25,727 nucleotides of DNA. Source: a virus. Taxonomy: Duplodnaviria; Caudoviricetes. This document shows, one piece after another, positions 12,982 through 25,727 of the stretch; position 1 is the stretch's first letter; the number at the start of each line of letters is the position of its first letter. The stretch spans positions 1-25,727 of IMG/VR virus record IMGVR_UViG_3300020362_000088. One strand, written 5' to 3'. The notes under the pieces were generated by a model. The model made no database searches, had not been told where the DNA came from, and saw only the letters and a program-made list of their open reading frames with translations. Made by a program: the position numbers and the translations under genes.

Positions 12982-13167
12982 TTATTCCTCCTTAAAGTAA
13001 TCGTCAAACATATCTTGTTCACATTTTGTACAACGTTCTGTAAATTCATAATCAGATTTAAATTGTGTCCTACAATTTTTACATCTTATATCATAATTAT
13101 CTACAGTTATTTGACTTCGCCATATATTCCAATCGCCAGATGTATACGATTTAAAGTAATCATTCAT
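12982..13167 (-). CDS. Zinc-ribbon microprotein (61 aa, MNDYFKS...)
   Basis: GGAGG RBS before ATG 13167 (track start 13248 lies deep in the upstream gene); CKNC...CTKC. Confidence 0.65.
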   Translation of the reverse strand: MNDYFKSYTSGDWNIWRSQITVDNYDIRCKNCRTQFKSDYEFTERCTKCEQDMFDDYFKEE

Positions 13168-13600
13168 TAGTTTCCTCCATATATAACAGTTTGTTTTTGT
13201 AATCTTTCCAACAATGTTTACTAGCATTCCAATGGTGCCATCCATCATTGTAAACTAACCAAGCAGCTACTGCTGTAGATACTTCAGGGTCAGTTCTATC
13301 ACTTATTATACCAAGCTTAGGAGTTAACCAAGCCCAGGTATTATCATTGAATTGCCATAAGCCGACATCTTTGGTCTTATCTGTATTAATGCCTATCGCA
13401 GTAGGCTTTCCACTACTCTCACAGGAGATTACATTTAATGCCTGTAAGGTATCGGCTTTGGCAAAATACCTTTGTACAAGGTCTGTATGTTCTAACACAT
13501 ACTCCACTTTAGAAGCCACTTCCATACATTCCCTGTACTCTGGTAATGTATCGGTTGTAATCAACAGGGGTATCATACAACCGACCAATACTTCTATCAT
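13160..13600 (-). CDS. Lytic transglycosylase (SLT/lysozyme-like, 146 aa)
   Basis: Catalytic CESSG, N.D.T.DVGLWQFN..TW and GWHHW motifs; hydrophobic N-terminus. Confidence 0.85.
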   Translation of the reverse strand: MIEVLVGCMIPLLITTDTLPEYRECMEVASKVEYVLEHTDLVQRYFAKADTLQALNVISCESSGKPTAIGINTDKTKDVGLWQFNDNTWAWLTPKLGIISDRTDPEVSTAVAAWLVYNDGWHHWNASKHCWKDYKNKLLYMEETNE

Positions 13601-13881: not shown

Positions 13882-14408
13882 TCCTCTGGTATATCACTGT
13901 TGTCTATCCACCAAGACTTACGCCACTTGCCTGTATGACCACCGCATTCTGCAGGGTTATTAGTGCTGCATGTAAAGTCTGGGCTTTTATCTGACCTTTT
14001 ACTGTTACGATTGTCATACACCATTTGTTGACAATAAGGACACTTAAGGTCATCTCTATATTTATTTTGTTCAGCCATTTGGTTTACTACCTCTCCGACA
14101 ATACCTTCTGGAGTTTGTGGTCCATTAGTAATGTCTATTGTTTCTATACCAGCTGCACTTAGTTTCTCTTGTATTGACATAGTTTCAAACTCTGCTTGAG
14201 TAAACTCTGTAGGTAAATCAAGCATTCGTTCAATCATGTCAAGGTAAGCTCCGACCTGTTCATCAGACCAGAGTTCCTTACTGGCTGGAAACTTTTTAAC
14301 TTGTGCATACTGATTTGCAGTACCTATTATTTTATTAACAGTTTCTACAGATTCAACTTTAGAAGTCATTTCTGCAACAGTTTGTGTAATAAAGTTAAGG
14401 TCTTGCAT
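13869..14408 (-). CDS. Protein with C-terminal zinc-binding domain (179 aa), recombination-module associated
   Basis: CPYC..MVYDNR...KSPDFTC...C...W motif; coupled to the Rad52-like gene. Confidence 0.6.
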   Translation of the reverse strand: MQDLNFITQTVAEMTSKVESVETVNKIIGTANQYAQVKKFPASKELWSDEQVGAYLDMIERMLDLPTEFTQAEFETMSIQEKLSAAGIETIDITNGPQTPEGIVGEVVNQMAEQNKYRDDLKCPYCQQMVYDNRNSKRSDKSPDFTCSTNNPAECGGHTGKWRKSWWIDNSDIPEEWGI

Positions 14409-14971
14409 TAGAATGGTGCTTCTTCTGGCTCATTAACAACGCTATCTGCAATTGCTTGCATACGTTCTAATGTTTCTTTAGAAGGTTTATTTTCCTTCTT
14501 ACGCATATCTGCTTTAGTTACTTTAACTTTAGCGTCTTTGTCAGCCATATCCTGTGTGTAACCATCATGTGCTACAGATGTAGCTTCTTCTTCTGATTGT
14601 TTACTACCAGACCATAGCTCAACACCAAGACCAAACCTCATACACGCACGTTTAAATGCGTCAGACTCTGCGTCTTTAAGGTTTGTACCATCATTGAACT
14701 TAGCATTGCCTAGCTTAAATGTATCAACGTCACCGAAACCATCATAGCTACCCATGCCTTCAATAGTTATAGTACCTTTAGCACCTACTATTCTTTTTTC
14801 TCCATTGTATGTACCATACACAGCTTCACATTGCCATGTGTACTTAACTCCACTGTCCCTTAAACGCTCAACGTAGTGTGCGTGTGGAACATAATCACCA
14901 AACTTACCAGCTGGTGCTTTACGAACTAACTCCTGTGGAAATGGAGATAGTAAGTCAACGTTATTAGTCAT
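14408..14971 (-). CDS. Rad52/Rad22-family single-strand annealing protein (Sak-like, 187 aa)
   Basis: LLSPFP, YVPHAHYVERL and LKDAESDAFKRACMRFGLG motifs; acidic EEAPF tail. Confidence 0.85.
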   Translation of the reverse strand: MTNNVDLLSPFPQELVRKAPAGKFGDYVPHAHYVERLRDSGVKYTWQCEAVYGTYNGEKRIVGAKGTITIEGMGSYDGFGDVDTFKLGNAKFNDGTNLKDAESDAFKRACMRFGLGVELWSGSKQSEEEATSVAHDGYTQDMADKDAKVKVTKADMRKKENKPSKETLERMQAIADSVVNEPEEAPF

Positions 14972-14984
14972 AACATTCCCTTCT

Positions 14985-15021
14985 GTATTTGTTTTTTTCT
15001 CATAAAGAGAAAAACAAATAC
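14985..15021. repeat. Conserved-loop hairpin, copy 1
   Basis: GTATTTGTTTTTTTCTC-ATAAA-GAGAAAAACAAATAC (17/5/15), directly upstream of the RBS of the Sak-like gene. Confidence 0.85.
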
Positions 15022-15023
15022 TT

Positions 15024-15194
15024 CTATTCTTTATCTAAGTCTAATAAATTTCGCAAGTTATGTACCCCTTTTTCTATGGGTACTAATTTGCACTCGCCAT
15101 TTATGTTGGTCAGAATAAAGTATGGCTTATCACCTAAACCACTGTACTCTATTCCAGTTAATGTCCAACTAGACTTAGTGTCTATGTTTGTCAT
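15024..15194 (-). CDS. Hypothetical protein (56 aa, MTNIDTK...), probably leaderless
   Basis: ATG 15194 lies 7 nt after TATAAT; ORF track extends it to 15212. Confidence 0.6.
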   Translation of the reverse strand: MTNIDTKSSWTLTGIEYSGLGDKPYFILTNINGECKLVPIEKGVHNLRNLLDLDKE

Positions 15195-15201
15195 AGTTTT
15201 C

Positions 15202-15231
15202 ATTATAGTCACTTATGTGACAATTTTACAA
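15202..15231 (-). promoter_or_regulatory. Sigma70-type promoter TTGTAA-N18-TATAAT with palindrome in spacer
   Basis: -10 at 15202-15207, -35 at 15226-15231; GTCAC-TTAT-GTGAC at 15208-15221. Confidence 0.55.
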
Positions 15232-16267
15232 GGTATTCTGCAGTTACTCCATGATTAGGTTTAGCAAACAATAACCATTGACATGGTCTTCCCATACTTG
15301 CTAATTGTTCTAATGCATATGTATTGTAACTTTCAGTACTACCATTTACCCACAATCTTATGTCATTAACATACATAGTTGTAGGTGTATGCCAATGTCC
15401 AGCAATAGCATAATCAAAATCAGGCATTAAACCTCTAGACGCTAGTGCTTTCCAACCTAATAGCTTTTTACCAAAGCCATACCATGGAAAACCTGAGTGT
15501 CCCCTTACATTATCGCCATGCCAAACAAAGAATTTACATCCTTTACCCAAGTCAGCAATATCAAACCAATGATTATCACCCTCAGAATCAGGAATAGTAA
15601 ATGATATTCGCTTATCTTTTTCATATACCATATCCATTATCTTGCCTAGCATTCTGTCTGCATTGCTATCAGGGTGATAATCTTTTCTGGCACGTCCCCC
15701 TAACGAACCATGGTTACCTATTACCCAATGTACTTCTACTTCATTAAAGTTCGCCAATAATGTATCAAAGAATTTTGTAAGTATTCTTGGACCATCAACT
15801 GTAACTTGATTGTATAAGCTTGCGTCAATCAAATGTGTTTGACCTGGGAATATAAGTTCACCTTCTACAATATCGCCAGCAGCTAGGACTACGCATTTGT
15901 TAACTGGATGTGCATATCGTTGTACGTTTGTCAACTCAACTATTTTATTTGCATATTCAATTACACGTTCTTCTGCTACTTCTGTGTTATAATCTGGCGT
16001 TACTTTCGCCAATTGTACATCTGAGAGTACAGCTATAGCTACTTCTTCGTTTTTATTACGTTTATGTAATTTAGGTTTAGGAATATTTGGTTTATTCCAT
16101 GTACGAAGATTAGTAGATACAGCTTCATAAACTGCTTCAATCATGTCAGCTTTTTTATTCTTAGCTTTTTCTAATGACTTAAGTAGTTTAAGGTTATCAG
16201 CTTTGAGTTCTTGTACTAATTTAGATTCAGCTTCTATAAATAGTTTATCAATATCTTTGTCACTCAT
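15209..16267 (-). CDS. Calcineurin-like metallophosphoesterase with N-terminal coiled coil (352 aa)
   Basis: SDVQ, GDIVEG, GNHG, WHGD and GHWH motifs. Confidence 0.9.
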   Translation of the reverse strand: MSDKDIDKLFIEAESKLVQELKADNLKLLKSLEKAKNKKADMIEAVYEAVSTNLRTWNKPNIPKPKLHKRNKNEEVAIAVLSDVQLAKVTPDYNTEVAEERVIEYANKIVELTNVQRYAHPVNKCVVLAAGDIVEGELIFPGQTHLIDASLYNQVTVDGPRILTKFFDTLLANFNEVEVHWVIGNHGSLGGRARKDYHPDSNADRMLGKIMDMVYEKDKRISFTIPDSEGDNHWFDIADLGKGCKFFVWHGDNVRGHSGFPWYGFGKKLLGWKALASRGLMPDFDYAIAGHWHTPTTMYVNDIRLWVNGSTESYNTYALEQLASMGRPCQWLLFAKPNHGVTAEYLVKLSHK

Positions 16268-16500
16268 TGAGTACCTAGATTTGCCAAGTTTTCAAAGTGA
16301 TTACGCACTGCACTTTCACTTATTTTTATACCATAGTTTTCTTTCAATAATCTTGAAACAACATATGGTTTTATATTACGTCCTGACTTAACACGTTCCT
16401 CACATCCACGCCAAAAAGGTTCAGCTTCTTCAGTAATTCTGTCTAGTATAGGACTTCTTTTACCATTCTCTGCTTCGTAAAGCATATCATCTATATTCAT
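16264..16500 (-). CDS. Small HTH-like protein (78 aa), probably leaderless
   Basis: VVSRLLKENYGIKISESAVRNH; ATG 16500 lies 7 nt after TATAAT (16508-16513). Confidence 0.65.
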   Translation of the reverse strand: MNIDDMLYEAENGKRSPILDRITEEAEPFWRGCEERVKSGRNIKPYVVSRLLKENYGIKISESAVRNHFENLANLGTQ

Positions 16501-16507
16501 ACTATTC

Positions 16508-16534
16508 ATTATACTCTTTCTGATATTTAGTCAA
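16508..16534 (-). promoter_or_regulatory. Promoter TTGACT-N15-TATAAT, probably leaderless
   Basis: Perfect -10; near-consensus -35 but short spacer. Confidence 0.5.
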
Positions 16535-16544
16535 TCTTATATAA

Positions 16545-16697
16545 AAATAAAATAGCGTAATGGTGTTCACTATAGGGATTGACTTGTACAGATTGTACGA
16601 AAACCTTGTCCGGAGTTCTCCTCCGACTCTATTCCATTACTTGATAAGGGTTACGTGGAAAGGAACACGTCACTATTGCTAGTACCTTATCTGCTAC
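16545..16697 (-). ncRNA. Candidate multi-branched structured RNA ending in a U-tract
   Basis: Nested inverted repeats GTAATGG/CCATTAC, GATAAGG/CCTTATC, CGGAG/CTCCG, GTACA/TGTAC, ACGTG/CACGT, closed by TAGC/GCTA. Confidence 0.5.
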
Positions 16698-18155
16698 TTA
16701 TACTAGCACGTTTAGTTTTAATGCGTGCTCTTTTACTTCCTTCATATTTTTTAGATTAATTATGTTTGCTTTCATACAAGTATCTAAGCATTCTTTAAGA
16801 AGATTGTAACCACAACTACTATCACCTCTACCAAATACTTGCATGTCACTAACCCATATACGTCTAGCTGGTTGTTCTGCTAGCCAACGTAAAGCTGGAC
16901 CGTCAATAACATTACCTCTGCCAGAATGTTTATTTAAATAAACATCGTCAGCACGTAATCCATTCTTAGCAATAATGCGTAAGTCACCGTAATTACCACT
17001 ACCATTGTACATAGCAATATTAACAGCAGGTAACAACATCATAATATCTAAGATATCTTGTCCATCAAACGACATTGAACCAGAAGCGTCAATCAATATA
17101 GTGCCACCTTTGACACGTTGTTTTTGTTTGAATATCTTCTTGTCAATACAGTACCTATTAATGTATTTAGGATTATAACCATAATCTTGTGGTCTATAAT
17201 CTCTACCATTTTTAAGTCTAGCTTGTAGATTAACTGACAATGGAGGTTCATGCATTCTCATTTCACCCCATACACCCAGAGTAGATGTTGTATAATAACG
17301 CATTTCTTCTAACAACTTACGTTGCATACGTCTTTTAAGTTCTTCTGGACTGTTACCAGAACCAGCTGTATCACTCTCTGCTTCACCTTCACCATCTTCA
17401 TCCATACCAGGTGCAGTGTTAACACCAGGTTTAGGCATAGGTTTATATACATAATCTGAACTAGGTTTATCATCCATTTCTAACAGAATTGTTAGACGCT
17501 TTGCTAGCTTTTTAACCTTAGCAAACGTAGGTGTATTAGTTCTTCTACTACTTATTAAGTCGTATGCAAATCGTTCTATTTGTGCTTTTACAAATTGATA
17601 TTCCATACGTCTTGCTTCTGTATATCTCATGTCATCTGCAGCGTCTTCTAACACAGCCAAATACATTTGAGTTAATCCACTATAATTATATGAATTGTAA
17701 CCATTGTAATATCTACGATATTTACTATCTTTTCTATTACTCCAAGTTAACAAGTTAAGAAAGCCTGCTATCATTTCTGCAATAGAACCTTCTGCTAATA
17801 GTTTAAGTACTTGTGCATTAGTAAAATCTATACATTTATATGGTTCTACTATGCCAACATTTTCTCTACCTAGTAGCCAGTCTATACGCATACGCTCTAG
17901 AATTTCTACAGCTTCTTGTCTAGTATCAGGTCCAAACTTACCTAATGTTTTAGGTGACCATTTAGCTCTACCTAGTTGATGTCTACGTATCATACGACTA
18001 TGGTTTACACCACAATACTCACACTCTCTATCAAGTGGTACAACCATCTTTCTATTTAGATTGTCAGTACGTGGTGTCTGATTTATATCAGTAGTCCCAT
18101 AGACTTGCCAAGCTTCGCCAGTTACAATCTCTGGATAAGGATAAGCTTTAGTCAT
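16698..18155 (-). CDS. VWA (MIDAS) domain protein, MoxR partner (about 485 aa)
   Basis: TILIDASGSM MIDAS motif, GNVIDG, IWVSD; acidic linker; likely start MTKAYPY at 18155. Confidence 0.85.
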   Translation of the reverse strand: MTKAYPYPEIVTGEAWQVYGTTDINQTPRTDNLNRKMVVPLDRECEYCGVNHSRMIRRHQLGRAKWSPKTLGKFGPDTRQEAVEILERMRIDWLLGRENVGIVEPYKCIDFTNAQVLKLLAEGSIAEMIAGFLNLLTWSNRKDSKYRRYYNGYNSYNYSGLTQMYLAVLEDAADDMRYTEARRMEYQFVKAQIERFAYDLISSRRTNTPTFAKVKKLAKRLTILLEMDDKPSSDYVYKPMPKPGVNTAPGMDEDGEGEAESDTAGSGNSPEELKRRMQRKLLEEMRYYTTSTLGVWGEMRMHEPPLSVNLQARLKNGRDYRPQDYGYNPKYINRYCIDKKIFKQKQRVKGGTILIDASGSMSFDGQDILDIMMLLPAVNIAMYNGSGNYGDLRIIAKNGLRADDVYLNKHSGRGNVIDGPALRWLAEQPARRIWVSDMQVFGRGDSSCGYNLLKECLDTCMKANIINLKNMKEVKEHALKLNVLV

Positions 18156-18858
18156 CAGCTTTAGCCAGTAATACTGCGTCAATTATTTCTTCTGCTTTAT
18201 CAGAAAATATAAGTTTAGCTGCAGTTTCCTCATCAAAGCTTTTATCTTTTAGCATGAAAAACTCTTTCCATGCACGTATAGATACACGTTGTTCTGGGTC
18301 ATCAACTAATGTAGTGTCATTAATAACACCATGCCATTCTTTAGGGAATACTTCCAAAGCTTTTGGATGTATTGTATCCATGTGAATTTTAACTGGGAAC
18401 CTATCTTTAAGTGCTAAAGGTAAACTCTCAGGTGGGCTGTTAGTTGTTGCGATAACCTGAAATCCTTCGGCAGGTCTGACAGTTTCACGTTTGTCATTGT
18501 TAATTGTTATACCTGCAATTTCTGGGTCATCTAAAATTGCATGCAGAAACGTCATTGCGTCTGGTGATGCGTGGTCTATCTCATTGATAACCAATCTACC
18601 ACCATGTCGCCATGATTGTATAGCGATACCGTCATGCCATTGAAAGCCACCATCTTTACTTGGTTTATAAAAGCCTTCTAAGTTAGCAGAAGCAGTATCT
18701 TCTGTCATTGTAATTTGAAACACATTTGGTTCGCCAAACGCATTCATAGGTTGGTCTTGTTTGACCGCACTATATGTTTTACCTGTACCAGGTGGACCAT
18801 ATAGTAATATTCTGTTTGATACACTAATTACATCGTTAAGTAAATCCCAACAATTCAT
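18148..18858 (-). CDS. MoxR-family AAA+ ATPase (CbbQ/NirQ/CobS-like, 236 aa)
   Basis: Walker A GPPGTGKT, FQWHDG, Walker B LVINEID, VIATTN, LPLALKDRF, VSIR. Confidence 0.9.
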   Translation of the reverse strand: MNCWDLLNDVISVSNRILLYGPPGTGKTYSAVKQDQPMNAFGEPNVFQITMTEDTASANLEGFYKPSKDGGFQWHDGIAIQSWRHGGRLVINEIDHASPDAMTFLHAILDDPEIAGITINNDKRETVRPAEGFQVIATTNSPPESLPLALKDRFPVKIHMDTIHPKALEVFPKEWHGVINDTTLVDDPEQRVSIRAWKEFFMLKDKSFDEETAAKLIFSDKAEEIIDAVLLAKADD

Positions 18859-19328
18859 TATGCACCTTCCTTTCCTTCGTCTATATCTTTTAAGAACTCC
18901 TCTGCTTGAGTACCCAAGTGAGAAGCATGTTCCATTACGTCATTTAATACAATGTCATTGATACGTTTTGTCTTGTCGTACTCAACAACTTGTATAGCTG
19001 CAGCTGGATGCATTAGCCATGAAGCAAATATACCTTTGTCTATAGCTTGCTGCCTAAGATTTTCTAGTTCGTCCCTAGTAAATACTTGTTTACCAAGTAA
19101 TGAAGGATGAGAACCAACATAATCTGTCATCATCTCTGCTTTATTAACTAAGTCAATAGTTGTTGCCATAGTTACAGCTTGAACTACGTCTTTAGCTTTC
19201 AAAAGTACACGAACAGTTCTAGTGCTTCTATCTTCTGGTGAACCAGGCATATCTAAATATGTTAGTGTAACCAGATATTCGATATCATCTTGTTCGCCTA
19301 CTTCTAAATAGTCACCTTCTATAGGCAT
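18858..19328 (-). CDS. Hypothetical protein (156 aa)
   Basis: AGAAAGGAG RBS; TAATG-coupled to the AAA gene. Confidence 0.7.
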   Translation of the reverse strand: MPIEGDYLEVGEQDDIEYLVTLTYLDMPGSPEDRSTRTVRVLLKAKDVVQAVTMATTIDLVNKAEMMTDYVGSHPSLLGKQVFTRDELENLRQQAIDKGIFASWLMHPAAAIQVVEYDKTKRINDIVLNDVMEHASHLGTQAEEFLKDIDEGKEGA

Positions 19329-19349
19329 ATATCTCCTTTCTTTTTTATA

Positions 19350-19390
19350 GTATGTGTGCCTTTAGCTCATAAAGAGAAAGGCACGCATAC
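19350..19390. repeat. Conserved-loop hairpin, copy 2
   Basis: GTATGTGTGCCTTT-AG-CTC-ATAAA-GAG-AAAGGCACGCATAC (19/5/17). Confidence 0.85.
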
Positions 19391-19494
19391 ACTTACCAGT
19401 TATGTGAGTGATACTGGGCATGAATACAAACATAACTAGCTTTGTATCTATGAATTGTAGTTGTAGATATTTATTTATATTTTCTAAAACATTC

Positions 19495-19736
19495 ATAGAT
19501 AGCTTGTAACACACAAGGAAAGTTTGTTAGACTTTTTACACCTTAGCTAAGGGATTACAACCTTATGTGCTACAAGCTACCTATAACCAATATGAGGTTT
19601 GCAGGACCAAATCTTGTTATTCCCATTCGGGCAAGACTTTATAAGGTACTCATATCAACAATTATAGATAGCTTGTAACACACAAGTAGAGTGGGTAGGA
19701 ATTTGAGTTACTACCTATGTGCTACAAGCTACCTAC
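19495..19736 (-). ncRNA. Two-unit repeated stem-loop array (conserved 23-bp stem, variable inserts)
   Basis: ATAGATAGCTTGTAACACACAAG at 19495-19517 and 19664-19686; CYTATGTGCTACAAGCTACCTAY at 19562-19584 and 19714-19736; all mismatches are G-U on the - strand. Confidence 0.7.
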
Positions 19737-19794
19737 ATTATGGTCTATCGGTTGACAAAGGGGAGTCAACAATGTAAATAGCTCTGCGTTTCAA

Positions 19795-20013
19795 TTACAG
19801 GGTTTCTGCGATTGAACTGTACCTTGATACTACATATATAGCAGGTCTATGTGATACTAAATTATCAAACTTATTGTCTGAATATTCTATTATCTTATCA
19901 ATAGTTTTTAGTGCTTGTCTTAAATCTGTATCTGTATCAAAGTAAAAATCTACTGTCAAACAATTTTCATCTTGTTTACCAGTTTCATCTACGTATTGAT
20001 ATACTTCACTCAT
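19795..20013 (-). CDS. Hypothetical protein (about 72 aa, MSEVYQY...)
   Basis: AAGGAG RBS before ATG 20013/20016; longer track version overlaps upstream gene. Confidence 0.6.
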   Translation of the reverse strand: MSEVYQYVDETGKQDENCLTVDFYFDTDTDLRQALKTIDKIIEYSDNKFDNLVSHRPAIYVVSRYSSIAETL

Positions 20014-20245
20014 CATGCTCCTTACAATCACACTGCATATCAGGTGTAATAGGACTAGATAAAGATAGTAATGCAACTTCTATATTGTGTCTGTTACACC
20101 ATATCTGTATATGTTGCATATCTTCTGTTAATCCTGCTGATATGTCTTGCCATTCCATTGGACTATAATGTGGTGGTTTATTCTGTAAACATACACCACA
20201 ATGTCCGTACTGTACTATTAGATTTTCTGACCTTAACTCATGCAT
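20006..20245 (-). CDS. Cys/His-rich zinc-binding protein (79 aa)
   Basis: HCGVC...IQIWCNRH...CDC. Confidence 0.65.
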   Translation of the reverse strand: MHELRSENLIVQYGHCGVCLQNKPPHYSPMEWQDISAGLTEDMQHIQIWCNRHNIEVALLSLSSPITPDMQCDCKEHDE

Positions 20246-20819
20246 TTCTTACACTCGCACGCATGTTAGCATTTTCTTTTCTAATACCATTAAAGATTTC
20301 TTCAGCATTCTTTATGGGATAAGTAGTTGCAGTTTCTTCTTCTTCAAATTCAACTACAAATGTATTAGTTATAGTTAGATTATATTTTGTTGCTATGTCA
20401 TGCAGTAGCATATATGGTTGTCCCCATGCAGATTCAAACCAAAAATGTACAGTTCTTTTACCATCAGTTGTTGTATCTGATACTAATTGTGTTGACATGT
20501 CACCCCATTTAGTACCCCAGTAGTCATACTGCCAGTCAATTGGTTCGTATGTACCGTACTTTTCTATAAGTTCTGCTTTAGTCATGTCAAGCATTGGTCT
20601 AGTTGTACCATCTTCATCTTCATACCATGCGTCACATCTAACACCATCAATAGTTATTGAACCTTGATGTACATTATCTAATTCTTTTGGTATAGGATTA
20701 CATTGGGTAAAATCATAAATAATTTCTTGTTCATCATACTTTGTAATAGTATCCATAAACTTAGAAACATCAGCTAAGTTACCTGTAATTAACGCATTAT
20801 TTCTACATATATTAGGCAT
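20238..20819 (-). CDS. YubB ferredoxin-like domain / DUF1281-related protein (193 aa)
   Basis: MPNICRN, DF....P.P.EL, W....WGTKW and FESAW..P motifs. Confidence 0.8.
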   Translation of the reverse strand: MPNICRNNALITGNLADVSKFMDTITKYDEQEIIYDFTQCNPIPKELDNVHQGSITIDGVRCDAWYEDEDGTTRPMLDMTKAELIEKYGTYEPIDWQYDYWGTKWGDMSTQLVSDTTTDGKRTVHFWFESAWGQPYMLLHDIATKYNLTITNTFVVEFEEEETATTYPIKNAEEIFNGIRKENANMRASVRNA

Positions 20820-21088
20820 TACTCTTCCTCTCTTTTCTTATCTAATATCATCTCATTTATATCTTGCATAAATACTTTCATGCTATCTGATATACCTTCT
20901 TCAGTATTAATATACTCAGTAAAATCATTTCTAATTTCATCGTATGATAATATAGCTGCAATAGCTTTCATTTGAAACCTTGGGTTTCTTGAACCCATTT
21001 CTTCCATAACTAATAACTGCATATCAGCTAATGTATTTATACGCATAGATAATTGGTCTAATTTATCTAGCAATTCTTTATCAGTCAC
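20819..21088 (-). CDS. Hypothetical protein (89 aa)
   Basis: GAAAGGAAG RBS; GTGA overlap. Confidence 0.65.
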   Translation of the reverse strand: MTDKELLDKLDQLSMRINTLADMQLLVMEEMGSRNPRFQMKAIAAILSYDEIRNDFTEYINTEEGISDSMKVFMQDINEMILDKKREEE

Positions 21089-21291
21089 TGTTCTTCCTTT
21101 CTTGTATTACTTGATACAGCTTTATCTATTTGATATACAATAGCTTCATTAAGCATTGCACACCAACCTTTAACTCGTTCATCAAGACCTTCATAATTTG
21201 TGGCTGCATTTTTTGTATCAGCTAGTGTCCACTTGATAACAGTACGTAACTGTGTAGTAGTAAGATTATCTAGCTTGTCATCAATATCCAT
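21085..21291 (-). CDS. Hypothetical protein (68 aa)
   Basis: AGAAAGGGA RBS, downstream of hairpin copy 3. Confidence 0.65.
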   Translation of the reverse strand: MDIDDKLDNLTTTQLRTVIKWTLADTKNAATNYEGLDERVKGWCAMLNEAIVYQIDKAVSSNTRKEEQ

Positions 21292-21317
21292 ATATTCCCT
21301 TTCTTAATTAATAATAA

Positions 21318-21354
21318 GTTCTTTTCTATTTTCCATAAAGAAAAAGAAAAGAAC
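21318..21354. repeat. Conserved-loop hairpin, copy 3
   Basis: GTTCTTTTCTATTTTCC-ATAAA-GAAAAAGAAAAGAAC (17/5/15). Confidence 0.8.
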
Positions 21355-21366
21355 GCCACCTATGTA

Positions 21367-21477
21367 CTACAATACCGGTGAACACGTATAGCAAAGTTCG
21401 TCTTCTGCTAATGGATACTCAGTGTATTGTAGACATTGATAACATTGTGGATATGGTTGCCCTGTAGGACTACTCAT
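21367..21477 (-). CDS. CxxC..CxxC micropeptide (36 aa, MSSPTGQPYPQCYQC...CYTCSPVL)
   Basis: Hand-translated; ATGA overlap with upstream ORF. Confidence 0.55.
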   Translation of the reverse strand: MSSPTGQPYPQCYQCLQYTEYPLAEDELCYTCSPVL

Positions 21478-21590
21478 TTTAAATCATAATCCAATTCATA
21501 TGTCTGTTTAATTCTATCTTTAATTTTACGTTCATTTTTTTTCCAATACAAATATGTTGGATACATTGGATGTTCTTTATTGGTCTTCAT
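21474..21590 (-). CDS. Micropeptide (38 aa, MKTNKEHPMYPTYLYW...)
   Basis: Hand-translated; GGAG upstream; overlapping chain. Confidence 0.5.
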   Translation of the reverse strand: MKTNKEHPMYPTYLYWKKNERKIKDRIKQTYELDYDLK

Positions 21591-21729
21591 TACCTACTCC
21601 AGATATGTCCATCTTAAATTGTTTTGGTATAAGTTCTAAGTGTTGTTCTGCCATACGTATAGCTTCGTTCTCATCATAAGCTTTGTATGTACGTTCACCT
21701 ATAAAATATATTTTATATTCATTCATCAT
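21577..21729 (-). CDS. Small protein (50 aa, MMNEYKIYFIGERTYKAYDENEAIRMAE...)
   Basis: Hand-translated; xAxxExEAI pattern common in small phage early proteins. Confidence 0.55.
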   Translation of the reverse strand: MMNEYKIYFIGERTYKAYDENEAIRMAEQHLELIPKQFKMDISGVGNEDQ

Positions 21730-21859
21730 CTACCACTACTACCTTTCTTACTGTATTTTTACCTTCGCCAAAAGCTTTCATATGAAGCTGTGCTTCACGA
21801 TATGAATAACCTCTGCGTAAACATTCCCATAATTGTTGAATAATTTGTTCTTCAGTCAT
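21719..21859 (-). CDS. Small protein (46 aa, MTEEQIIQQLWECLRRGYS...)
   Basis: Hand-translated; AAGGAGG RBS; ATGA overlap. Confidence 0.6.
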   Translation of the reverse strand: MTEEQIIQQLWECLRRGYSYREAQLHMKAFGEGKNTVRKVVVVDDE

Positions 21860-21963
21860 TGTTCCTCCTTATATTCACAATTTACGCAACATACCAATAC
21901 TTCATCAACGATTTGAAAGTCAGTTGGATTTGTATTGCATACTATACATAAACTATTAGTCAT
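21856..21963 (-). CDS. CxxC..CxxC micropeptide (35 aa, MTNSLCIVC...CCVNCEYKEEQ)
   Basis: Hand-translated; GGAGG RBS; TAATG coupling. Confidence 0.6.
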   Translation of the reverse strand: MTNSLCIVCNTNPTDFQIVDEVLVCCVNCEYKEEQ

Positions 21964-22052
21964 TATTCTTCCTCCAATGTATTTAAGTAATTCCAATAGT
22001 CATCTATAGAACTACCTTGTTTTATAAATTCTTCTAATGTATATTTAGTCAT
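21963..22052 (-). CDS. Micropeptide (29 aa, MTKYTLEEFIKQGSSIDDYWNYLNTLEEE)
   Basis: Hand-translated; GAGG RBS; TAATG coupling at both ends. Confidence 0.6.
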   Translation of the reverse strand: MTKYTLEEFIKQGSSIDDYWNYLNTLEEE

Positions 22053-22411
22053 TATTCCTCATCCATTTGACTTTGGTGATTTAAAATTCTATTCCATTCA
22101 TCTTGTGTTACACCGGTCAATGCAACTTTTAGTCCTTTAAATAAGTCTAGCAATTCTGGAAAATAAATATCAGTTATTTTTTCATTACCTTTAGCTTCAG
22201 TCCAAAAGTTTACACTGAATGTATCAAGCCATGTATGTATAATAGTTACTTCCATGTCGTCACCTGTATAATTTTTAAACGCAAGTTTTAATCCACCACG
22301 TTCATTGTCTTCGCCTTCGGTTAGTTCTTTAACCTTTACATTTGTAAAGTCAAAGTTTACTTCCTCTGCATAAGCTTTGATAGCGTCTGCACTGTCTGTA
22401 TATTGTCGCAT
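22052..22411 (-). CDS. Hypothetical acidic protein (119 aa)
   Basis: AGAAGGGA RBS. Confidence 0.7.
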   Translation of the reverse strand: MRQYTDSADAIKAYAEEVNFDFTNVKVKELTEGEDNERGGLKLAFKNYTGDDMEVTIIHTWLDTFSVNFWTEAKGNEKITDIYFPELLDLFKGLKVALTGVTQDEWNRILNHQSQMDEE

Positions 22412-22439
22412 ATAGTTTCCCTTCTTATATAATTAATCT

Positions 22440-22543
22440 GTCTAGCCAACATAATTTGTTTTACTTTATTCCGTGCGGAAGCTAGACTATTGGTATATAT
22501 ACCTAGCAGTCCATAGTAATCTATAGACTGCAAGCTATACACC
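22440..22543 (-). ncRNA. Tandem intergenic stem-loops, one related to the 19.5 kb stems
   Basis: GTCTAGC/GCTAGAC (22440-22487) and a long hairpin at 22492-22543 with G-U pairs and UAGCUUGCAG on the - strand. Confidence 0.5.
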
Positions 22544-22550
22544 GATTGTG

Positions 22551-22811
22551 TTATACAGATACAGTATCATCTACCGGTGCAGTAGTTGATACAGTTCCTT
22601 TCGTATCTGTAGTATTGTTCTCTGCATTAGTTTCTTTCTTTACATAGTCTGCAGATTTTCTATGTAATTCTCTTACGCAATTAATGTGTAAATAAAATGG
22701 TATCTTTTCCAAGTTGCCATCTATTGGGACTGTTGCCCACGTTCTATCACGCCATGCTTCTATTGATGTGTGACATACACCGCAGTCAACCGGTTTATAT
22801 TCTGTAGTCAT
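22551..22811 (-). CDS. CxxC...HxxC zinc-finger protein (86 aa)
   Basis: CGVC...IPFYLHINC; GGAAGGA RBS. Confidence 0.7.
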   Translation of the reverse strand: MTTEYKPVDCGVCHTSIEAWRDRTWATVPIDGNLEKIPFYLHINCVRELHRKSADYVKKETNAENNTTDTKGTVSTTAPVDDTVSV

Positions 22812-22834
22812 ATATATTCCTTCCTAAATATAAA

Positions 22835-22871
22835 GTTTTTTTATATTTTTCATAAAGAAAAATAAAAAAAC
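22835..22871. repeat. Conserved-loop hairpin, copy 4
   Basis: GTTTTTTTATATTTTTC-ATAAA-GAAAAATAAAAAAAC (17/5/15). Confidence 0.85.
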
Positions 22872-22888
22872 ACATTAATCTAATGCCT

Positions 22889-23107
22889 TCACTTTTGTGA
22901 AGACACTAGATTATTTGGATGAGTTGGGCTAGTTTTACTAGCTTCCCATATCGCTTGCTTTGATACGTGAGTAGGTGCGTCACGCCATGCATTTGTTTTC
23001 TTATCAAATACCGGCAACCATGCTACTTCACTATATCTTGTCATAGTGATACCTGATATTGCACATATCCTTGGTTCGGGCATGATGTTTTTATCTTTAG
23101 TTGTCAT
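22889..23107 (-). CDS. Hypothetical protein (72 aa), possibly degenerate zinc finger
   Basis: AGAAAGGA RBS; ICAISG...PTHVS. Confidence 0.65.
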   Translation of the reverse strand: MTTKDKNIMPEPRICAISGITMTRYSEVAWLPVFDKKTNAWRDAPTHVSKQAIWEASKTSPTHPNNLVSSQK

Positions 23108-23127
23108 ATATTTCCTTTCTTTACTAA

Positions 23128-23165
23128 ATGATATTGTGCCGACATATCATGCCGACACATATCAT
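23128..23165 (-). repeat. 17-bp intergenic hairpin
   Basis: AUGAUAUGUGUCGGCAU-GAU-AUGUCGGCACAAUAUCAU pairs on the - strand with two G-U pairs and one bulge. Confidence 0.65.
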
Positions 23166-23178
23166 ATTGTGCGTAACT

Positions 23179-23391
23179 TTAAAATGGGTTTTCATCAAAC
23201 GCTTCTATGTCTACCTTAGTTATATTTAGTGCTTGAGTATCCCTGTCCACTACTTTTTGTATTTGATTATCGTAGTGGTCTTGAACACCTTGTTCCAAGG
23301 CACGTTCTATAACAGACATAGTTTCGCCTGATAGGTATTTACCAATAGTTTCCAATGCTTTGTTCACTTCTTGAACGTCAATATATTGCAT
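23179..23391 (-). CDS. Hypothetical protein (70 aa, MQYIDVQ...FDENPF)
   Basis: AGAAAGGA RBS before ATG 23391; track start overlaps upstream gene. Confidence 0.65.
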   Translation of the reverse strand: MQYIDVQEVNKALETIGKYLSGETMSVIERALEQGVQDHYDNQIQKVVDRDTQALNITKVDIEAFDENPF

Positions 23392-23402
23392 ATCATTCCT
23401 TT

Positions 23403-23630
23403 CTAGAATAATGTTTCTTGTTTGTTTTGTTTCTTTTGATATGTCCAAGATAACTTGTGAAAATGCCATACATTTTCGCCTAAGTTATCTATTTTAGTTC
23501 CACATTCTCTGTGTAAGTATGCGGGTATGGACACACCTTTGCTTCTCAAATAGATTGGATATCTGTCATCACTCATTACTTCGTTCTGACAGTATCCACA
23601 GTGTACGATATTTACGCCATTATTGGTCAT
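23403..23630 (-). CDS. CxxC...HxxC zinc-finger protein (75 aa)
   Basis: CGYC...IPAYLHREC; AAGGAAG RBS. Confidence 0.65.
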   Translation of the reverse strand: MTNNGVNIVHCGYCQNEVMSDDRYPIYLRSKGVSIPAYLHRECGTKIDNLGENVWHFHKLSWTYQKKQNKQETLF

Positions 23631-23663
23631 AACAATACTTCCTTATGCAGAAGAAAGGTAGCA

Positions 23664-23855
23664 CTATTGTGCTACACTTTCTTTCTCTGCATTGTATTTA
23701 TCCCAATAACAGTTTCTATGGATAGCCAAAGCGTATGCCTTCGGCATACCTTTGTCATCTTTCTTGTATGTTTTGTTAGCAGTGTCCCATGACAAGTCAT
23801 GTATTCTACTGCCCTTGCTTGTGAATGCTTCACCGCACAATAAACAATTAATCAT
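23664..23855 (-). CDS. CxxC...HxxC zinc-finger protein (63 aa), first gene of early arm
   Basis: CLLC...LAIHRNC; AGAAAGGA upstream. Confidence 0.65.
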   Translation of the reverse strand: MINCLLCGEAFTSKGSRIHDLSWDTANKTYKKDDKGMPKAYALAIHRNCYWDKYNAEKESVAQ

Positions 23856-23874
23856 ATCTCTTACTGTCCTTTCT

Positions 23875-23911
23875 GTTCTTTAGAGAAATTCATAAAGAAT
23901 TTCTAAAGAAC
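23875..23911. repeat. Conserved-loop hairpin, copy 5 (stem extends 23858-23929)
   Basis: GTTCTTTAGAGAAATTC-ATAAA-GAATTTCTAAAGAAC (17/5/15). Confidence 0.85.
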
Positions 23912-24034
23912 TATAGAAAGGCGTAAGAGTATGATAATTTATTGTCGGAAGCATTAAAGCAAGCAGTAGATACAACTTGTCGGACACCTAACAAACATAC
24001 TAAAGATGATAAGCTATCCGGATTAACATAGGTA

Positions 24035-24203
24035 AGTTAAATGCAGATATCAATGAATTAAAGTATACAGTAGGGTATTGCATTTAACTACAGAATGCCT
24101 GCATTCTGAGTCAAACTACAGAACTAGAAAGCATAATACTGCATACAGAATAAAATTCTGTATAGGTATGCAGTAATTATGCTTACTTCTGTATAGTTTG
24201 ACT
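24035..24203. repeat. Cluster of long inverted repeats and TACAGAA heptamers; candidate origin/packaging region
   Basis: AGTTAAATGCA/TGCATTTAACT, CAGAATGC-CT-GCATTCTG, and a 95-nt imperfect hairpin AGTCAAACTA...TAGTTTGACT. Confidence 0.7.
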
Positions 24204-24460
24204 ACCTAATGTTAATCTAAGGTGTTCTATTTATTAACGTAAGGTCTATAAAATATCTTGGTAATCTTTTGTACAGATAAAAGCCTTATAGTAGTTGCCT
24301 TTCTTGGCAGGAGCGGGCATAGTATGTAGTGCTCCTGACTTAACCTTTTTTAATGTCCTTGGGTACTGCCTTTGTCTTTCTAGTGTACTGATTACTCAGT
24401 GAGCAGCTTTCGGTGTCCCGGTCACCACTTTACCTGTAACAAAATACTATGGTTTAGTGT

Positions 24461-24502
24461 TTGTATTTAATGTGACTATAGCATATAATTCTCACTATAC
24501 AA
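24461..24502. promoter_or_regulatory. Overlapping divergent sigma70-type promoters
   Basis: + strand TTGTAT(24461)-N17-TATAAT(24484); - strand TTGTAT(24502-24497)-N16-TATAGT(24480-24475) with TG extension. Confidence 0.55.
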
Positions 24503-24526
24503 ACATCTACAGAAAGTTAGTTAATA

Positions 24527-25727
24527 GTGTCAAACAATGTCATCTGTATAGCAGAGGGTTGCAGAAAAAAATTAAAAGGTAGACAAACAAAATTCTGCTC
24601 AGGAACATGCCAGAAGCGTCAATTTGCACGTGACAAGCGACATAATGACAAAGTGGACACCAAGCCCATAAATAAAGAGTATAATGCAGATACAGGCGAT
24701 TACGCATCTGTACGCAGAGGACAGTATTACCGAGCTTTTGTAAGCGAAGGTATAGCCGAAGAAGTTGCAACTGGCGACATGACAGTAGCAGATGCGGCTT
24801 CCCTCCTTGGTTGCACTCCTGCTACTGTTAGTCGCATGCTTGCTGCCTACAAAATAGATAGTAGGAACGAAATAGCAGCAGAAGAGTGGGAATTATCAGC
24901 AGAAGCAGAAGCAGCATTAGAAAATTTTTCTAGCTTCCGACACAAATACTTTAGAACAGAGCTAGGAAAACACTATGACACCGCAGATTTTCACACTAAT
25001 TGGATAAATAATATTATAGATAGTATAGAAAACGGTAAAGAATTATTAATACTGTCACCCCCACGACACGGAAAAACAGAATTATTAATACACTTTGCTG
25101 TATATCAAATATGTAAAAACCCTAACGTACGTATTATGTGGGTAGGTGGTAACGAAGATATAGCTAAAAATGCATTATCTGCTGTACTTGACGTACTAGA
25201 TACTAATGAAGAACTTAAAGAAGATTTTTGTGCACCTGGACAATCTTTTAAACCAGATAATAGGTCAGGTAAAAACTGGTCACAAAACCAATTTACTGTA
25301 GGTACTAGAACAGTAGCAGGTATTAAGTCACCTACTATGGTAGCTGTAGGTAAAGGCGGTAAAATTCTATCACGTGATTGTGACATAATTATTGCAGACG
25401 ACATTGAAGACCACCAAACTACACAACAACCTGGTGCAAGAGAATCTACAAGGCAATGGTGGACAACAACATTATCAAGTCGTAAAGAGGAACATACTGC
25501 TGTTATTGTTATTGGTTCTAGACAGCACCCTGATGATTTATATAACCATTTACTTGAATCAGATAACTTTACAAGCATAGTAGAAACTGCACATGCACTT
25601 GATTGTCAGATACCAGAACATTTAGAAGATGAACATATTGACTGTATGTTGTGGTCAAACAAACGTAGTTTTAAATGGTTAATGTCTAGGTTGCACTCTG
25701 CTGAATCTACAGGTGGTAGACAAACAT
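24527..25727 (+). CDS. terL: Terminase large subunit with N-terminal Zn-finger and HTH extension, 3'-truncated
   Basis: Hand-translated from GTG 24527 with no stop to window end: Walker A LSPPRHGKT, Walker B IIIADDIED, coupling motif IGSRQHPDDLY; N-terminal CIAEGC...FCSGTC and MTVADAASLLGCTPATVSRML. Confidence 0.92.
   Translation, partial: MSNNVICIAEGCRKKLKGRQTKFCSGTCQKRQFARDKRHNDKVDTKPINKEYNADTGDYASVRRGQYYRAFVSEGIAEEVATGDMTVADAASLLGCTPATVSRMLAAYKIDSRNEIAAEEWELSAEAEAALENFSSFRHKYFRTELGKHYDTADFHTNWINNIIDSIENGKELLILSPPRHGKTELLIHFAVYQICKNPNVRIMWVGGNEDIAKNALSAVLDVLDTNEELKEDFCAPGQSFKPDNRSGKNWSQNQFTVGTRTVAGIKSPTMVAVGKGGKILSRDCDIIIADDIEDHQTTQQPGARESTRQWWTTTLSSRKEEHTAVIVIGSRQHPDDLYNHLLESDNFTSIVETAHALDCQIPEHLEDEHIDCMLWSNKRSFKWLMSRLHSAESTGGRQT

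Follow-up and report, generated by a model that had tools for sequence, protein, structure and literature searches.

Covarying hairpins with lineage-specific tips before the early genes of a podovirus-like phage group: candidate structural promoters

Five hairpins in the early arm of the window (the whole 25,727-nt stretch of phage DNA analyzed here) are part of a family-wide element of a podovirus-like phage group whose host is probably within the Actinobacteria. The element occupies the gap from a stop codon to the next ribosome-binding site (RBS) in a fixed orientation and in the early arm only; its stem covaries, its tip is lineage specific, it is linked to the gene downstream, and its loops and mismatches lean toward the template strand. 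We tentatively read it as a private promoter, in which a hairpin extruded from the DNA would be read by a phage protein, and we give this reading a probability of about 0.38.

Hairpins in the window and in related phages

The copies in the window, with the predicted extension of the last one, are as follows.

14985..15021, minus strand: before the single-strand annealing protein (SSAP) gene; RBS directly after the stem
19350..19390, minus strand: before a 156-aa gene; one mismatched pair, C-A on the mRNA strand and G-T on the template strand
21318..21354, minus strand: before a 68-aa gene; a 6-nt loop plus a 1-nt bulge, or a 5-nt loop with a G-U pair
22835..22871, minus strand: before an 86-aa zinc-finger gene; T-rich distal arm, also the tail of a terminator-like stem at 22876-22913
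23875..23911, minus strand: before the first early gene
23851..23935, minus strand: extension of the copy at 23875; predicted long stem in which, on the mRNA, the first gene's RBS and AUG are paired (z, -8.7)

All five copies reported by the first-pass annotation were found again, with the heptamer C-ATAAA-G at 15001, 19368, 21334, 22851, and 23891, and the claim that they lie 13 to 26 nt upstream of minus-strand start codons was confirmed by gaps of 13, 21, 26, 23, and 19 nt. The one further match to the heptamer in the window, at 20316 on the minus strand, is within a coding sequence and has no stem. When the window was scanned without regard to the loop word, a single apex word was recovered five times, whereas no word occurred more than once in any of 100 block-wise dinucleotide shuffles (100/100). 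A covariance-model search of the hairpins against Rfam gave no matches at an E value of ≤1.

Other parts of the original description needed qualification. The stems had been called unrelated, and they do differ strongly (30 to 80% identity among the five lower stems), but over 37 nt the copy at 14985 has 68% identity to the one at 21318 and 76% identity to the one at 22835. The 37-nt sequence at 14985 is itself the same in relatives L001 and L008 to L013. Likewise, the two extra nucleotides said to be always on the gene-proximal arm are obtained at 21318 only by splitting them between a 6-nt loop and a 1-nt bulge or by allowing a G-U pair on the mRNA. The copy at 23875 tops a longer predicted hairpin (about 23851-23935), within which the first gene's RBS and AUG are buried.

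The closest near-complete relative (50 kb) carries exactly five such hairpins over its whole record, all in the early arm. Across relatives, the stems covary strictly, whereas the loop and the 2-nt offset are constant only within a lineage, other lineages having different but related loops at the corresponding positions. What had been described as constant, namely the loop, the +2 offset, and the GT..AC ends, holds inside the lineage but not for the family: relatives have 4-nt loops or the offset on the other arm, and +2 on the gene-proximal arm was found in 4 of 52 clusters. For an apex class that was defined after inspection of the data, the same apex word was found in 30% of 187 within-genome pairs versus 9% of 5807 between-genome pairs. 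Family-wide, the stems are 15 to 25 bp with interruptions, the loops are 4 to 5 nt, and no flank is conserved.

The early genes differ in order and content among relatives, and a unit of stop codon, stem-loop, RBS, and ATG, at which genes are exchanged, is present in this variable region. Among 60 pairs of look-alike hairpins with one flank changed, the downstream DNA was kept in 58, versus 2. Breakpoints around the stem base were spread from -14 to +40 nt, and the stem began within 20 nt of the upstream stop codon in 43 of the 102 cases measured. GenBank phages yielded distant terminases only and no SSAP match, and a search of freely accessible literature returned nothing on this element. None of 23 RNA runs, all in the form of contigs, contained more than 0.11 of the words, and the four examined gave only patchy cover by relatives.

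Early genes and candidate readers

The genes behind the hairpins, together with a second zinc-finger gene near the first copy, are as follows.

23664..23855, minus strand: first early gene, encoding the family-20 zinc finger (63 aa, CxxC..HxxC), a candidate reader
23403..23630, minus strand: 75-aa CxxC..HxxC zinc finger (family 3), a paralogue; second candidate reader
22551..22811, minus strand: zinc-finger paralogue of family 4 (86 aa), preceded by the copy at 22835
21085..21291, minus strand: conserved gene of family 5 (68 aa) without a family match, preceded by the copy at 21318
18858..19328, minus strand: fast-evolving gene of family 2 (156 aa), preceded by the copy at 19350 and coupled to an AAA+ ATPase gene; third candidate reader
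14408..14971, minus strand: Rad52/Sak-like single-strand annealing protein, preceded by the copy at 14985 (phrog_3290, E 2.7e-10)

The suggestion that shape plus loop forms a signal for one factor gained support, since the stems covary, the apex is common to the copies of a genome, and the apex type co-occurs with one phage gene. The window's type, a 5-nt loop with the +2 offset, was present in 17 of 19 contigs with a family-20 gene and in none of the 92 contigs that reach the terminase and lack this gene (60 of which include at least 3 kb of the early arm). The two exceptions, L098 and L099, encode a diverged family-20 protein and have a different loop with, by eye, a similar 5-nt/+2 shape. 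Apex type also correlates by linkage with several other early genes (rho of 0.64 for family 3, 0.54 for family 12, 0.48 for the AAA+ gene, and 0.44 for family 2), and the link between gene and type comes from essentially one or two lineages. Two identities of 1.0 were ignored as inferred truncated ORFs.

Homology did not single out a reader. Profiles of families 2, 3, 4, 5, and 9 had no PDB match below an E value of 0.1, and Pfam scans of families 3 and 4 gave no shared family. For family 2, the best Atlas score was 0.80, and its model (pLDDT, 82) had no viral fold match at an E value of ≤0.001. The idea that the zinc fingers are PARP-like, which came from ligand spacing alone, found no support, and WhiB was found in none of five relatives.

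DNA or mRNA as the active form

The first-pass annotation had left open whether the hairpins act as RNA or as DNA, citing an A-C mismatch on the mRNA strand of the second copy. This mismatch was recovered, and comparison of loops and mismatches across relatives leans toward the template strand. Counting one element per sequence cluster and leaving out RBS positions, we found 8 G-T and 14 A-C isolated stem mismatches on the mRNA strand of the apex class, compared with 35 and 12 in the remaining intergenic hairpins of these genomes (Fisher P = 0.003); looser clustering gave 8 and 11 versus 34 and 12 (P = 0.02). The A-C excess by itself is not significant (14 versus 8), and hairpins before family 5 show the reverse bias (19 G-T and 4 A-C).

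On the template strand, most of the loops are purine-rich types that are stable as DNA. Of 37 cluster representatives whose 4-nt loop is closed by C-G, a set picked irrespective of loop sequence, 21 have R-N-A-R and 13 have GNNA/GNAB on the template strand, whereas none has UNCG, GNRA, or GNNA on the mRNA strand. Unusual stability has been described for C-G-closed GNNA/GAAB loops in DNA, which are found at N4 promoters and primase sites (PMC13037366; PMC4496689). The window's own loop, ATAAA on the template, is A-initial and of neither the GNNA nor the GNA type; in lineage L052-L074 the tip is closed by U-G pairs and the loops are UNCG-like on the mRNA, and L098 has a loop rich in A on the mRNA; these cases run counter to the lean. 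In its favor, 13 of 45 SSAP-site hairpins (4 clusters) contain a tandem TC/TC internal loop, which reads GA/GA on the template strand.

Folded as DNA, the template strand had the lower energy in 104 of 138 core hairpins. The same arm also has a separate family of G-U-rich, sequence-conserved stalks, one of which lies at 19662-19737. This family folds much better as mRNA (-38.9 versus -25.4 kcal/mol), so stems selected on the mRNA look different in this arm. The hairpins do fold on the mRNA, yet without the G-U excess of their neighbors: the 25 window-type elements, a set selected for at least 9/10 pairing from which rows L042 and L063 of another lineage were left out, have only one G-U in 250 lower-stem positions. 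The strands of the 18 long first-gene stems fold equally well (8/10 as RNA and 11/7 as DNA).

From these features we infer a model in which a strictly paired inverted repeat with a lineage-specific tip, filling the gap before an early-gene RBS, would act in the DNA. The hairpin would be extruded and its template-strand loop exposed to a phage-encoded protein, most likely one of the small early zinc fingers, and host RNA polymerase would start transcription inside the gene-proximal arm. Each unit of hairpin, RBS, and gene would then be a portable, separately driven module. A terminator-like stem that ends directly at the copy at 22835, where re-initiation would be needed, fits this model. Since transcripts starting in the proximal arm would be without the distal arm, the RBS of the first gene would be left open, whereas read-through RNA would fold it shut. 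Two points sit less easily with the model. The model does not explain how the first gene comes to be expressed initially, should that gene encode the reader; and the long first-gene stems cover both RBS and AUG, which is explained most simply as mRNA control. The full version of the model, in which the first-gene zinc finger of a phage with no RNA polymerase of its own reads the template loop and recruits host polymerase to each early module, and reader and loop co-diverge into a private structural promoter code for each lineage, is doubtful.

Conventional promoter signals were not seen. No -10 or -35 box was fixed at any set distance, and promoter-like sites numbered 47 against 55 expected. 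A sigma-type promoter with the apex as its -35 or -10 element was rejected: 52 cluster representatives showed no downstream TAnnnT peak, and none was fixed upstream. A TAGACT before the SSAP-site hairpin was also set aside, since it belongs to the last part of the upstream gene and the other sites lack it. No phage RNA polymerase was recognized, including in a PF00940 search run without a control that gave a signal. A 1.9-kaa protein of the virion region gave no match in Pfam, PHROG, or PDB; among named Atlas clusters, LPD38 came closest to it (0.91), and the C-terminal half of the protein, modeled with low confidence (pTM, 0.33), had no fold match. The covarying stem and the template purine loop bear out part of the analogy to N4 promoters that had been proposed, whereas the polymerase that it calls for was not recognized.

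The main alternative, which is possible with the odds against it, is that the hairpins act as operators on the mRNA. In that case, the U-rich loop above the bulge would be bound by a phage protein, again probably one of the early zinc fingers, much as the mom hairpin is bound by Mu Com, opening or closing the RBS of the first gene and, at the other copies, stabilizing, processing, or antiterminating the transcript. The RBS is predicted to be buried in all nine family-20 leaders (probability unpaired of 0 to 0.39 in eight) and in most other first-gene leaders; the AUG is buried as well in the window, and the same design stands before other first-gene families. A T-G beside the closing pair in 5 of 25 window-type elements also fits, and the lineage-specific tips and the zinc-finger link fit equally well. 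RNA loops that are read by proteins need not be stable loop types. In addition, Com is a small phage zinc finger that is described as reading a hairpin-loop motif beside an RBS-burying stem (PMC6483171). Against mRNA operators, the stems lack the G-U excess of neighboring mRNA hairpins, and at four of the five window copies the RBS is outside the stem, so that an effect of binding there must be assumed.

The hairpins are unlikely to be host-nuclease processing sites or 5' stabilizers in one long early transcript, for which a phage reader would be unnecessary. T7 has RNase III sites laid out along its early mRNA, and the loop word presumably matches the RNase III end at these sites. The location (intergenic, before an RBS) is the same, the interrupted stems of 15 to 25 bp include the double-helical stretch of about 11 bp or more that is a trait of such sites, and RNase III is encoded in Actinomycetota MAGs that hold relatives and presumably represent their hosts. 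RNase III can open a buried RBS (PMC5371410), and the T7 and SP82 sites are described as having internal loops and being cut on the downstream side (PMC1935012). However, the available account has bacterial RNase III reading stem boxes and ascribes loop reading to yeast Rnt1p (PMC3867540), and a host enzyme leaves the joint change of the tip at all sites of a genome unexplained. Ruler-type cleavage was likewise rejected, since the irregular part of the stem is 1 to 5 pairs below the loop with no position constant across lineages. The second, G-U-rich stalk family is the better candidate for RNase III.

It is quite improbable that the hairpins are intrinsic terminators or attenuators without a U-tail, acting on early or antisense transcription. 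The proximity of 43 of 102 stems to an upstream stop codon, the terminator-like score of the copy at 14985 on the plus strand, and a T-run after the stem in a few relatives fit termination. However, at least six T's in the 9 nt after the stem were found in 5 of 51 clusters, compared with 17 of 119 other hairpins, and at least six A's before the stem in 6 of 51; with no U-tract, behavior as plain terminators, which had been raised at the outset, was not borne out at the level of sequence. In addition, the hairpin follows the downstream gene (58 versus 2), the RBS often comes directly after the stem, and terminators have no need of a shared loop.

Least probable of all are structure-read, attC-like recombination sites that shuffle early-gene cassettes. 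The attC sites, too, have stems that vary, additional bases on one arm, and a template strand that is rich in purines and folds better (PMC5027507), and early-gene order and content do vary. However, a tyrosine recombinase was absent from five of five near-complete relatives (the control gave a signal in 14 of 14 genomes), the breakpoints are scattered, and a conserved crossover triplet was not seen. Moreover, the hairpin stays with the gene downstream of it, whereas an attC site is carried at the 3' end of its gene, and lineages differ in which arm bears the extra bases.

Comparison with known systems

To our knowledge, promoters defined by a hairpin are on record only for virion polymerases of the N4 type, and Mu Com is the single case of a phage zinc finger that reads a loop. 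In the present case, a signal defined by structure is maintained ahead of the early genes across an entire phage group, with a tip that has changed by lineage, and the candidate readers form a short list of 63 to 156 aa. Whether the signal acts as DNA or RNA, it would offer a natural series of orthogonal hairpin-reader pairs, and either outcome would account for the compatibility or incompatibility of early-gene modules across lineages.

Mu has one target gene where several are seen here, and the Com finger, whose ligands we take to be C4, differs from CxxC..HxxC. The likeness to Com/mom lies in a small phage zinc finger, a hairpin-loop motif, and a stem containing RBS and start codon, as described for mom (PMC6483171), with burial of RBS and AUG here at the first gene only. 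In the early mRNAs of T7 and SP82, too, a number of long, irregular stems separate the early genes and precede an RBS (PMC1935012; PMC5371410), but the conserved feature described there is an internal loop in mid-stem, whereas here it is an apical loop that changes by phage lineage. Integron attC sites share a shape that is kept while the sequence varies, with purine and G-T skew of the template strand (PMC5027507); unlike attC, the present element has downstream-gene linkage and no integrase, crossover triplet, or sharp breakpoints.

N4 early promoters are also inverted repeats with a variable, covarying stem and a C-G-closed purine loop on the template strand, confined to the early region (PMC4496689). 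They differ in their stems of 5 to 7 bp, 3-nt loop, and conserved sequence from -17 to +1, compared with 15 to 25 bp, a 4- to 5-nt loop, a bulge, and lineage-specific tips here, and in their virion RNA polymerase, none having been recognized here. The promoter-early stem-loop (PeSL) of the T4-type phages RB49 and phi1 has the same order of stop codon, stem-loop, RBS, and start codon in a portable unit, located in a variable early region, at which genes are swapped (PMC2839356). However, PeSLs hold sigma-70 -35/-10 boxes and terminator stems with G/C tracts, neither of which has a fixed place here; the shared part is the promoter box in PeSLs and the loop in the element described here.

Gene layout and the five early hairpins

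Tail and lysis genes on the plus strand open the window, which is an entire 25.7-kb virus record, and are followed by an early arm on the minus strand (about 12.5 to 23.9 kb) and then by terminase on the plus strand. The early arm encodes a Rad52/Sak-like annealing protein, a metallophosphoesterase, a MoxR-type AAA+ ATPase, and many small genes. It also holds an SLT/transglycosylase protein at 13160-13600, outside the lysis and virion genes (Pfam SLT, E = 4e-9), which has a weak, below-cutoff Rpf-type match (E = 0.0014). Relatives encode an SU10-type major capsid protein and large proteins downstream of the portal, which suggests a podovirus. No DNA polymerase, primase, helicase, integrase, or RNA polymerase was recognized among the scanned proteins (the window, stretches L238 to L241 of the near-complete relatives G001 and G005, and part of the relatives' open reading frames); replication seems to be left to the host, with the phage contributing an annealing protein, a nuclease, and an AAA+/vWA-like pair. 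G001, a 50-kb record (L238 and L239), has similar tail genes of diverged sequence at both ends; the record may have a long redundancy, or its assembly may be chimeric.

Four of the five matches among bacterial genomes fell in Actinomycetota metagenome-assembled genomes (MAGs) and one in a Gammaproteobacteria MAG, and the phage ribosome-binding site (RBS) is complementary to the 16S end in one of the matching actinobacterial MAGs. The host is thus probably an actinobacterium, as judged from binned contigs. Actinomarinales phages with WhiB are described in PMC7771536; since WhiB was absent from all five near-complete relatives, we do not equate the two groups.

All five hairpins reported in the first-pass annotation were recovered, in a single orientation:

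14985-15021, minus strand, hairpin before an early gene
19350-19390, minus strand, hairpin before an early gene
21318-21354, minus strand, hairpin before an early gene
22835-22871, minus strand, hairpin before an early gene
23875-23911, minus strand, hairpin before the first early gene

The start codons lie 13 to 26 nt downstream, as had been claimed. Across the family, apex and start codon are separated by a median of 36 nt, the spacing at which a -10-region element would sit given a short leader. Of the window's six matches to the loop heptamer, five belong to these hairpins and the sixth, which has no stem, lies inside a coding sequence. A scan that took no account of the loop word found no apex word more than once in any of 100 local dinucleotide shuffles but found one five times in the window. 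Folded on the mRNA strand with their flanks, the copies gave z scores of -2.6 to -8.7, and an Rfam search returned no match at an E value of ≤1. The copy before the first early gene is predicted to be prolonged, on the mRNA, into a long stem covering the RBS and AUG, a design that recurs before unrelated first genes. In the divergent gap between the first early gene and terminase (23930-24620), there are more inverted repeats (24035-24089, 24083-24115, and 24129-24184) and repeated CCGACA words, which also occur twice at 23137-23163 and are frequent in relatives' hairpin stems.

Conservation of shape across relatives

Three scans yielded 232 viral loci; combining these with the window gave 186 stretches. 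A strong hairpin (≤-10 kcal/mol in an 80-nt leader) preceded the annealing protein in 98% of 55 distinct leaders, the 156-aa gene in 81% of 52, the 68-aa gene in 87% of 54, and the first early gene in 92% of 12, compared with 12 to 23% in three control families; for the 86-aa finger, the figure was only 32% of 47 at this 80-nt limit. The closest near-complete relative carries exactly five window-type hairpins (5-nt loop and 2 extra nt on the gene-proximal arm) in its whole record, all early. From one lineage to another the hairpin sequences are wholly different, even at locus L002, where the protein behind the hairpin is 96% identical.

The annotation's observation that stems differ yet stay complementary was borne out by 25 distinct window-type elements, in which all four Watson-Crick pairs were seen at most lower-stem positions. 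Pairing held at 244 of 250 positions, versus 46% with arms redealt. Choosing the set for at least 9 of 10 pairs makes this percentage partly circular, a circularity that does not extend to the variety of pair types. The proposed invariance of loop and offset held in part: the +2 offset was present in 24 of the 25, but the loop varies slightly (TTTAT, TTTAC, TTTTT, TTTAG, and TTGAT on the mRNA strand) and the offset varies across the family (of 52 clusters, 4 have +2 and 20 have -1).

A strand-neutral scan gave 361 distinct intergenic, RBS-proximal hairpins. The tip C-Y-Y-(Y)-D-Y-G, a pattern picked after inspection, was seen on the mRNA strand in 141 of them and on the opposite strand in 5. 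Without a preset pattern, 4-nt loops were closed by C-G 57 times versus 11 for G-C, and the 57 had pyrimidines at positions 1 (46), 2 (46), and 4 (42). In the more distant lineage L068 (2008, 2296, 4988, and 9917) and in L070 (2370), short TAAC-loop hairpins precede early genes, with a TATGAY-like box 22 nt later. Since the one L068 stem folded at length is G-U rich and U tailed, these hairpins may instead be junctions of a terminator and a promoter, distinct from the element described here.

Gene order and content in the early arm vary between relatives. Among 198 hairpin pairs at least 80% alike, one flank alone differed in 60, and the downstream DNA was kept in 58 of these, a result favored by the mostly coding nature of that side. 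Measured from the distal stem base, identity ended at points ranging from 14 nt inside to 40 nt outside, and no promoter box was found at a set distance from the hairpins.

A second repeat family is also present:

19493-19586, minus strand, conserved stalk
19662-19737, minus strand, conserved stalk
22498-22539, shorter relative

In this family a stalk of some 26 bp, conserved in sequence, surrounds a hypervariable insert of about 10 to 90 nt. On the mRNA strand the stalk includes several G-U pairs and folds at -38.9 kcal/mol, versus -25.4 on the opposite strand. There are 48 distinct copies in 55 stretches; every one is on the early strand, and most directly precede the 156-aa gene, at times in tandem. 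An Rfam search found no match. In form the repeat resembles a processing stalk of the RNase III type, from which a variable small RNA would be released.

Strand traces and a candidate reader

Isolated stem mismatches in other intergenic hairpins of these genomes behave as mRNA stems do (35 G-T and 12 A-C). In hairpins with the family's tip pattern, the counts were 8 and 14 (P = 0.003 against the others; P = 0.02 at looser clustering), although the A-C excess is not significant by itself. Of 37 clusters with C-G-closed 4-nt loops, 21 read R-N-A-R on the template strand and 13 read GNNA/GNAB, whereas none of the 37 has a UNCG, GNRA, or GNNA loop on the mRNA strand; recurrent tandem TC/TC loops likewise become GA/GA on the template. 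PMC13037366 describes GNNA/GNAB-like DNA loops as unusually stable and as found at N4 promoters and primase sites. Leaders of the 68-aa gene lean the opposite way (19 G-T and 4 A-C), long first-gene stems show no preference, and lineage L052-L074 has U-G-closed, UNCG-like tips on mRNA. A similar trace would be expected if RNA were selected to keep a pyrimidine patch unpaired and flexible, and antisense RNA would be compatible with the strand data, although its source is not obvious.

Tips also follow the genome. The same apex word was shared by 30% of 187 within-genome pairs (different genes) versus 9% of 5,807 between-genome pairs, and the same loop length by 87% versus 53%, in related genomes whose pairs are non-independent. 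Inheritance of the downstream gene does not by itself account for the window type: the window's annealing protein is closer to that of L002 (96%; other hairpin) than to that of L010 (88%; identical hairpin).

The type instead goes with the first early gene. This gene encodes a 63-aa CxxC..HxxC zinc finger (23664..23855, minus strand), and 17 of the 19 contigs with it carry the window type. The six typed contigs without it all end before that gene, and none of the 92 terminase-reaching contigs without it is typed. Loci L098 and L099, whose versions of this finger are 33 to 37% identical to the window's, have a different loop of similar shape. Family 2 (the 156-aa gene) and family 1 likewise group typed genomes, and the 75-aa finger correlates best overall with apex similarity (rho = 0.64) and is absent from one typed subgroup. 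These early-gene families are candidate readers drawn from one or two lineages, in which linkage is inseparable from cause. Small CxxC..HxxC fingers cluster at the start of the early arm (23403-23630, 22551-22811, 22889-23107, and 23664-23855); the 75-aa and 86-aa fingers are paralogous (HHalign, 96%), and the first-gene protein is weakly so (58%, E = 1e-4). A Q-x2/3-L-F/Y motif, which resembles the sliding-clamp-binding motif, ends 24 of 63 distinct 75-aa-family proteins.

Competing explanations and known systems

We class the elements as a kind of structure-defined early regulatory cassette. We favor, at a probability of roughly 0.4, a private start signal in which the hairpin would extrude from DNA, a phage protein would recognize it on the template strand, and host polymerase would initiate within the gene-proximal arm. 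Under this reading the strand lean, the lineage code, the portability with the downstream gene, and the terminator that immediately precedes one copy would all be explained, but it has no polymerase or proven activator to point to and does not account for how the first gene would itself first be expressed. Its boldest form, a DNA hairpin promoter code read by zinc fingers for host polymerase, is unlikely.

A Com-like operator (Mu Com, PMC6483171), read by a phage protein on the mRNA, is a possible but weaker contender and gives the best account of the buried first RBS. Taken together with the DNA start signal, it makes reading of the tip by some phage-encoded protein about two chances in three. 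Processing by host RNase III has the best precedent (PMC1935012 and PMC5371410); genome-wide tip switching goes unexplained by it, and we consider it improbable. A plain intrinsic terminator is very improbable, having failed a direct sequence-level test in that neither side of the hairpins has a U-tract, and an attC-like site, which also failed its direct test, is the least credible; no tyrosine recombinase was found in the five near-complete relatives.

We found no published description of the element in the open literature. Possible parallels include the fixed-loop T4 intercistronic hairpins, lambda boxB, and the T7 cut-site word. Although the elements lack defining features of N4 promoters (PMC4496689), PeSL cassettes (PMC2839356), and integron attC sites (PMC5027507), the N4 early promoter and the PeSL cassette are the closest matches to how they would work.
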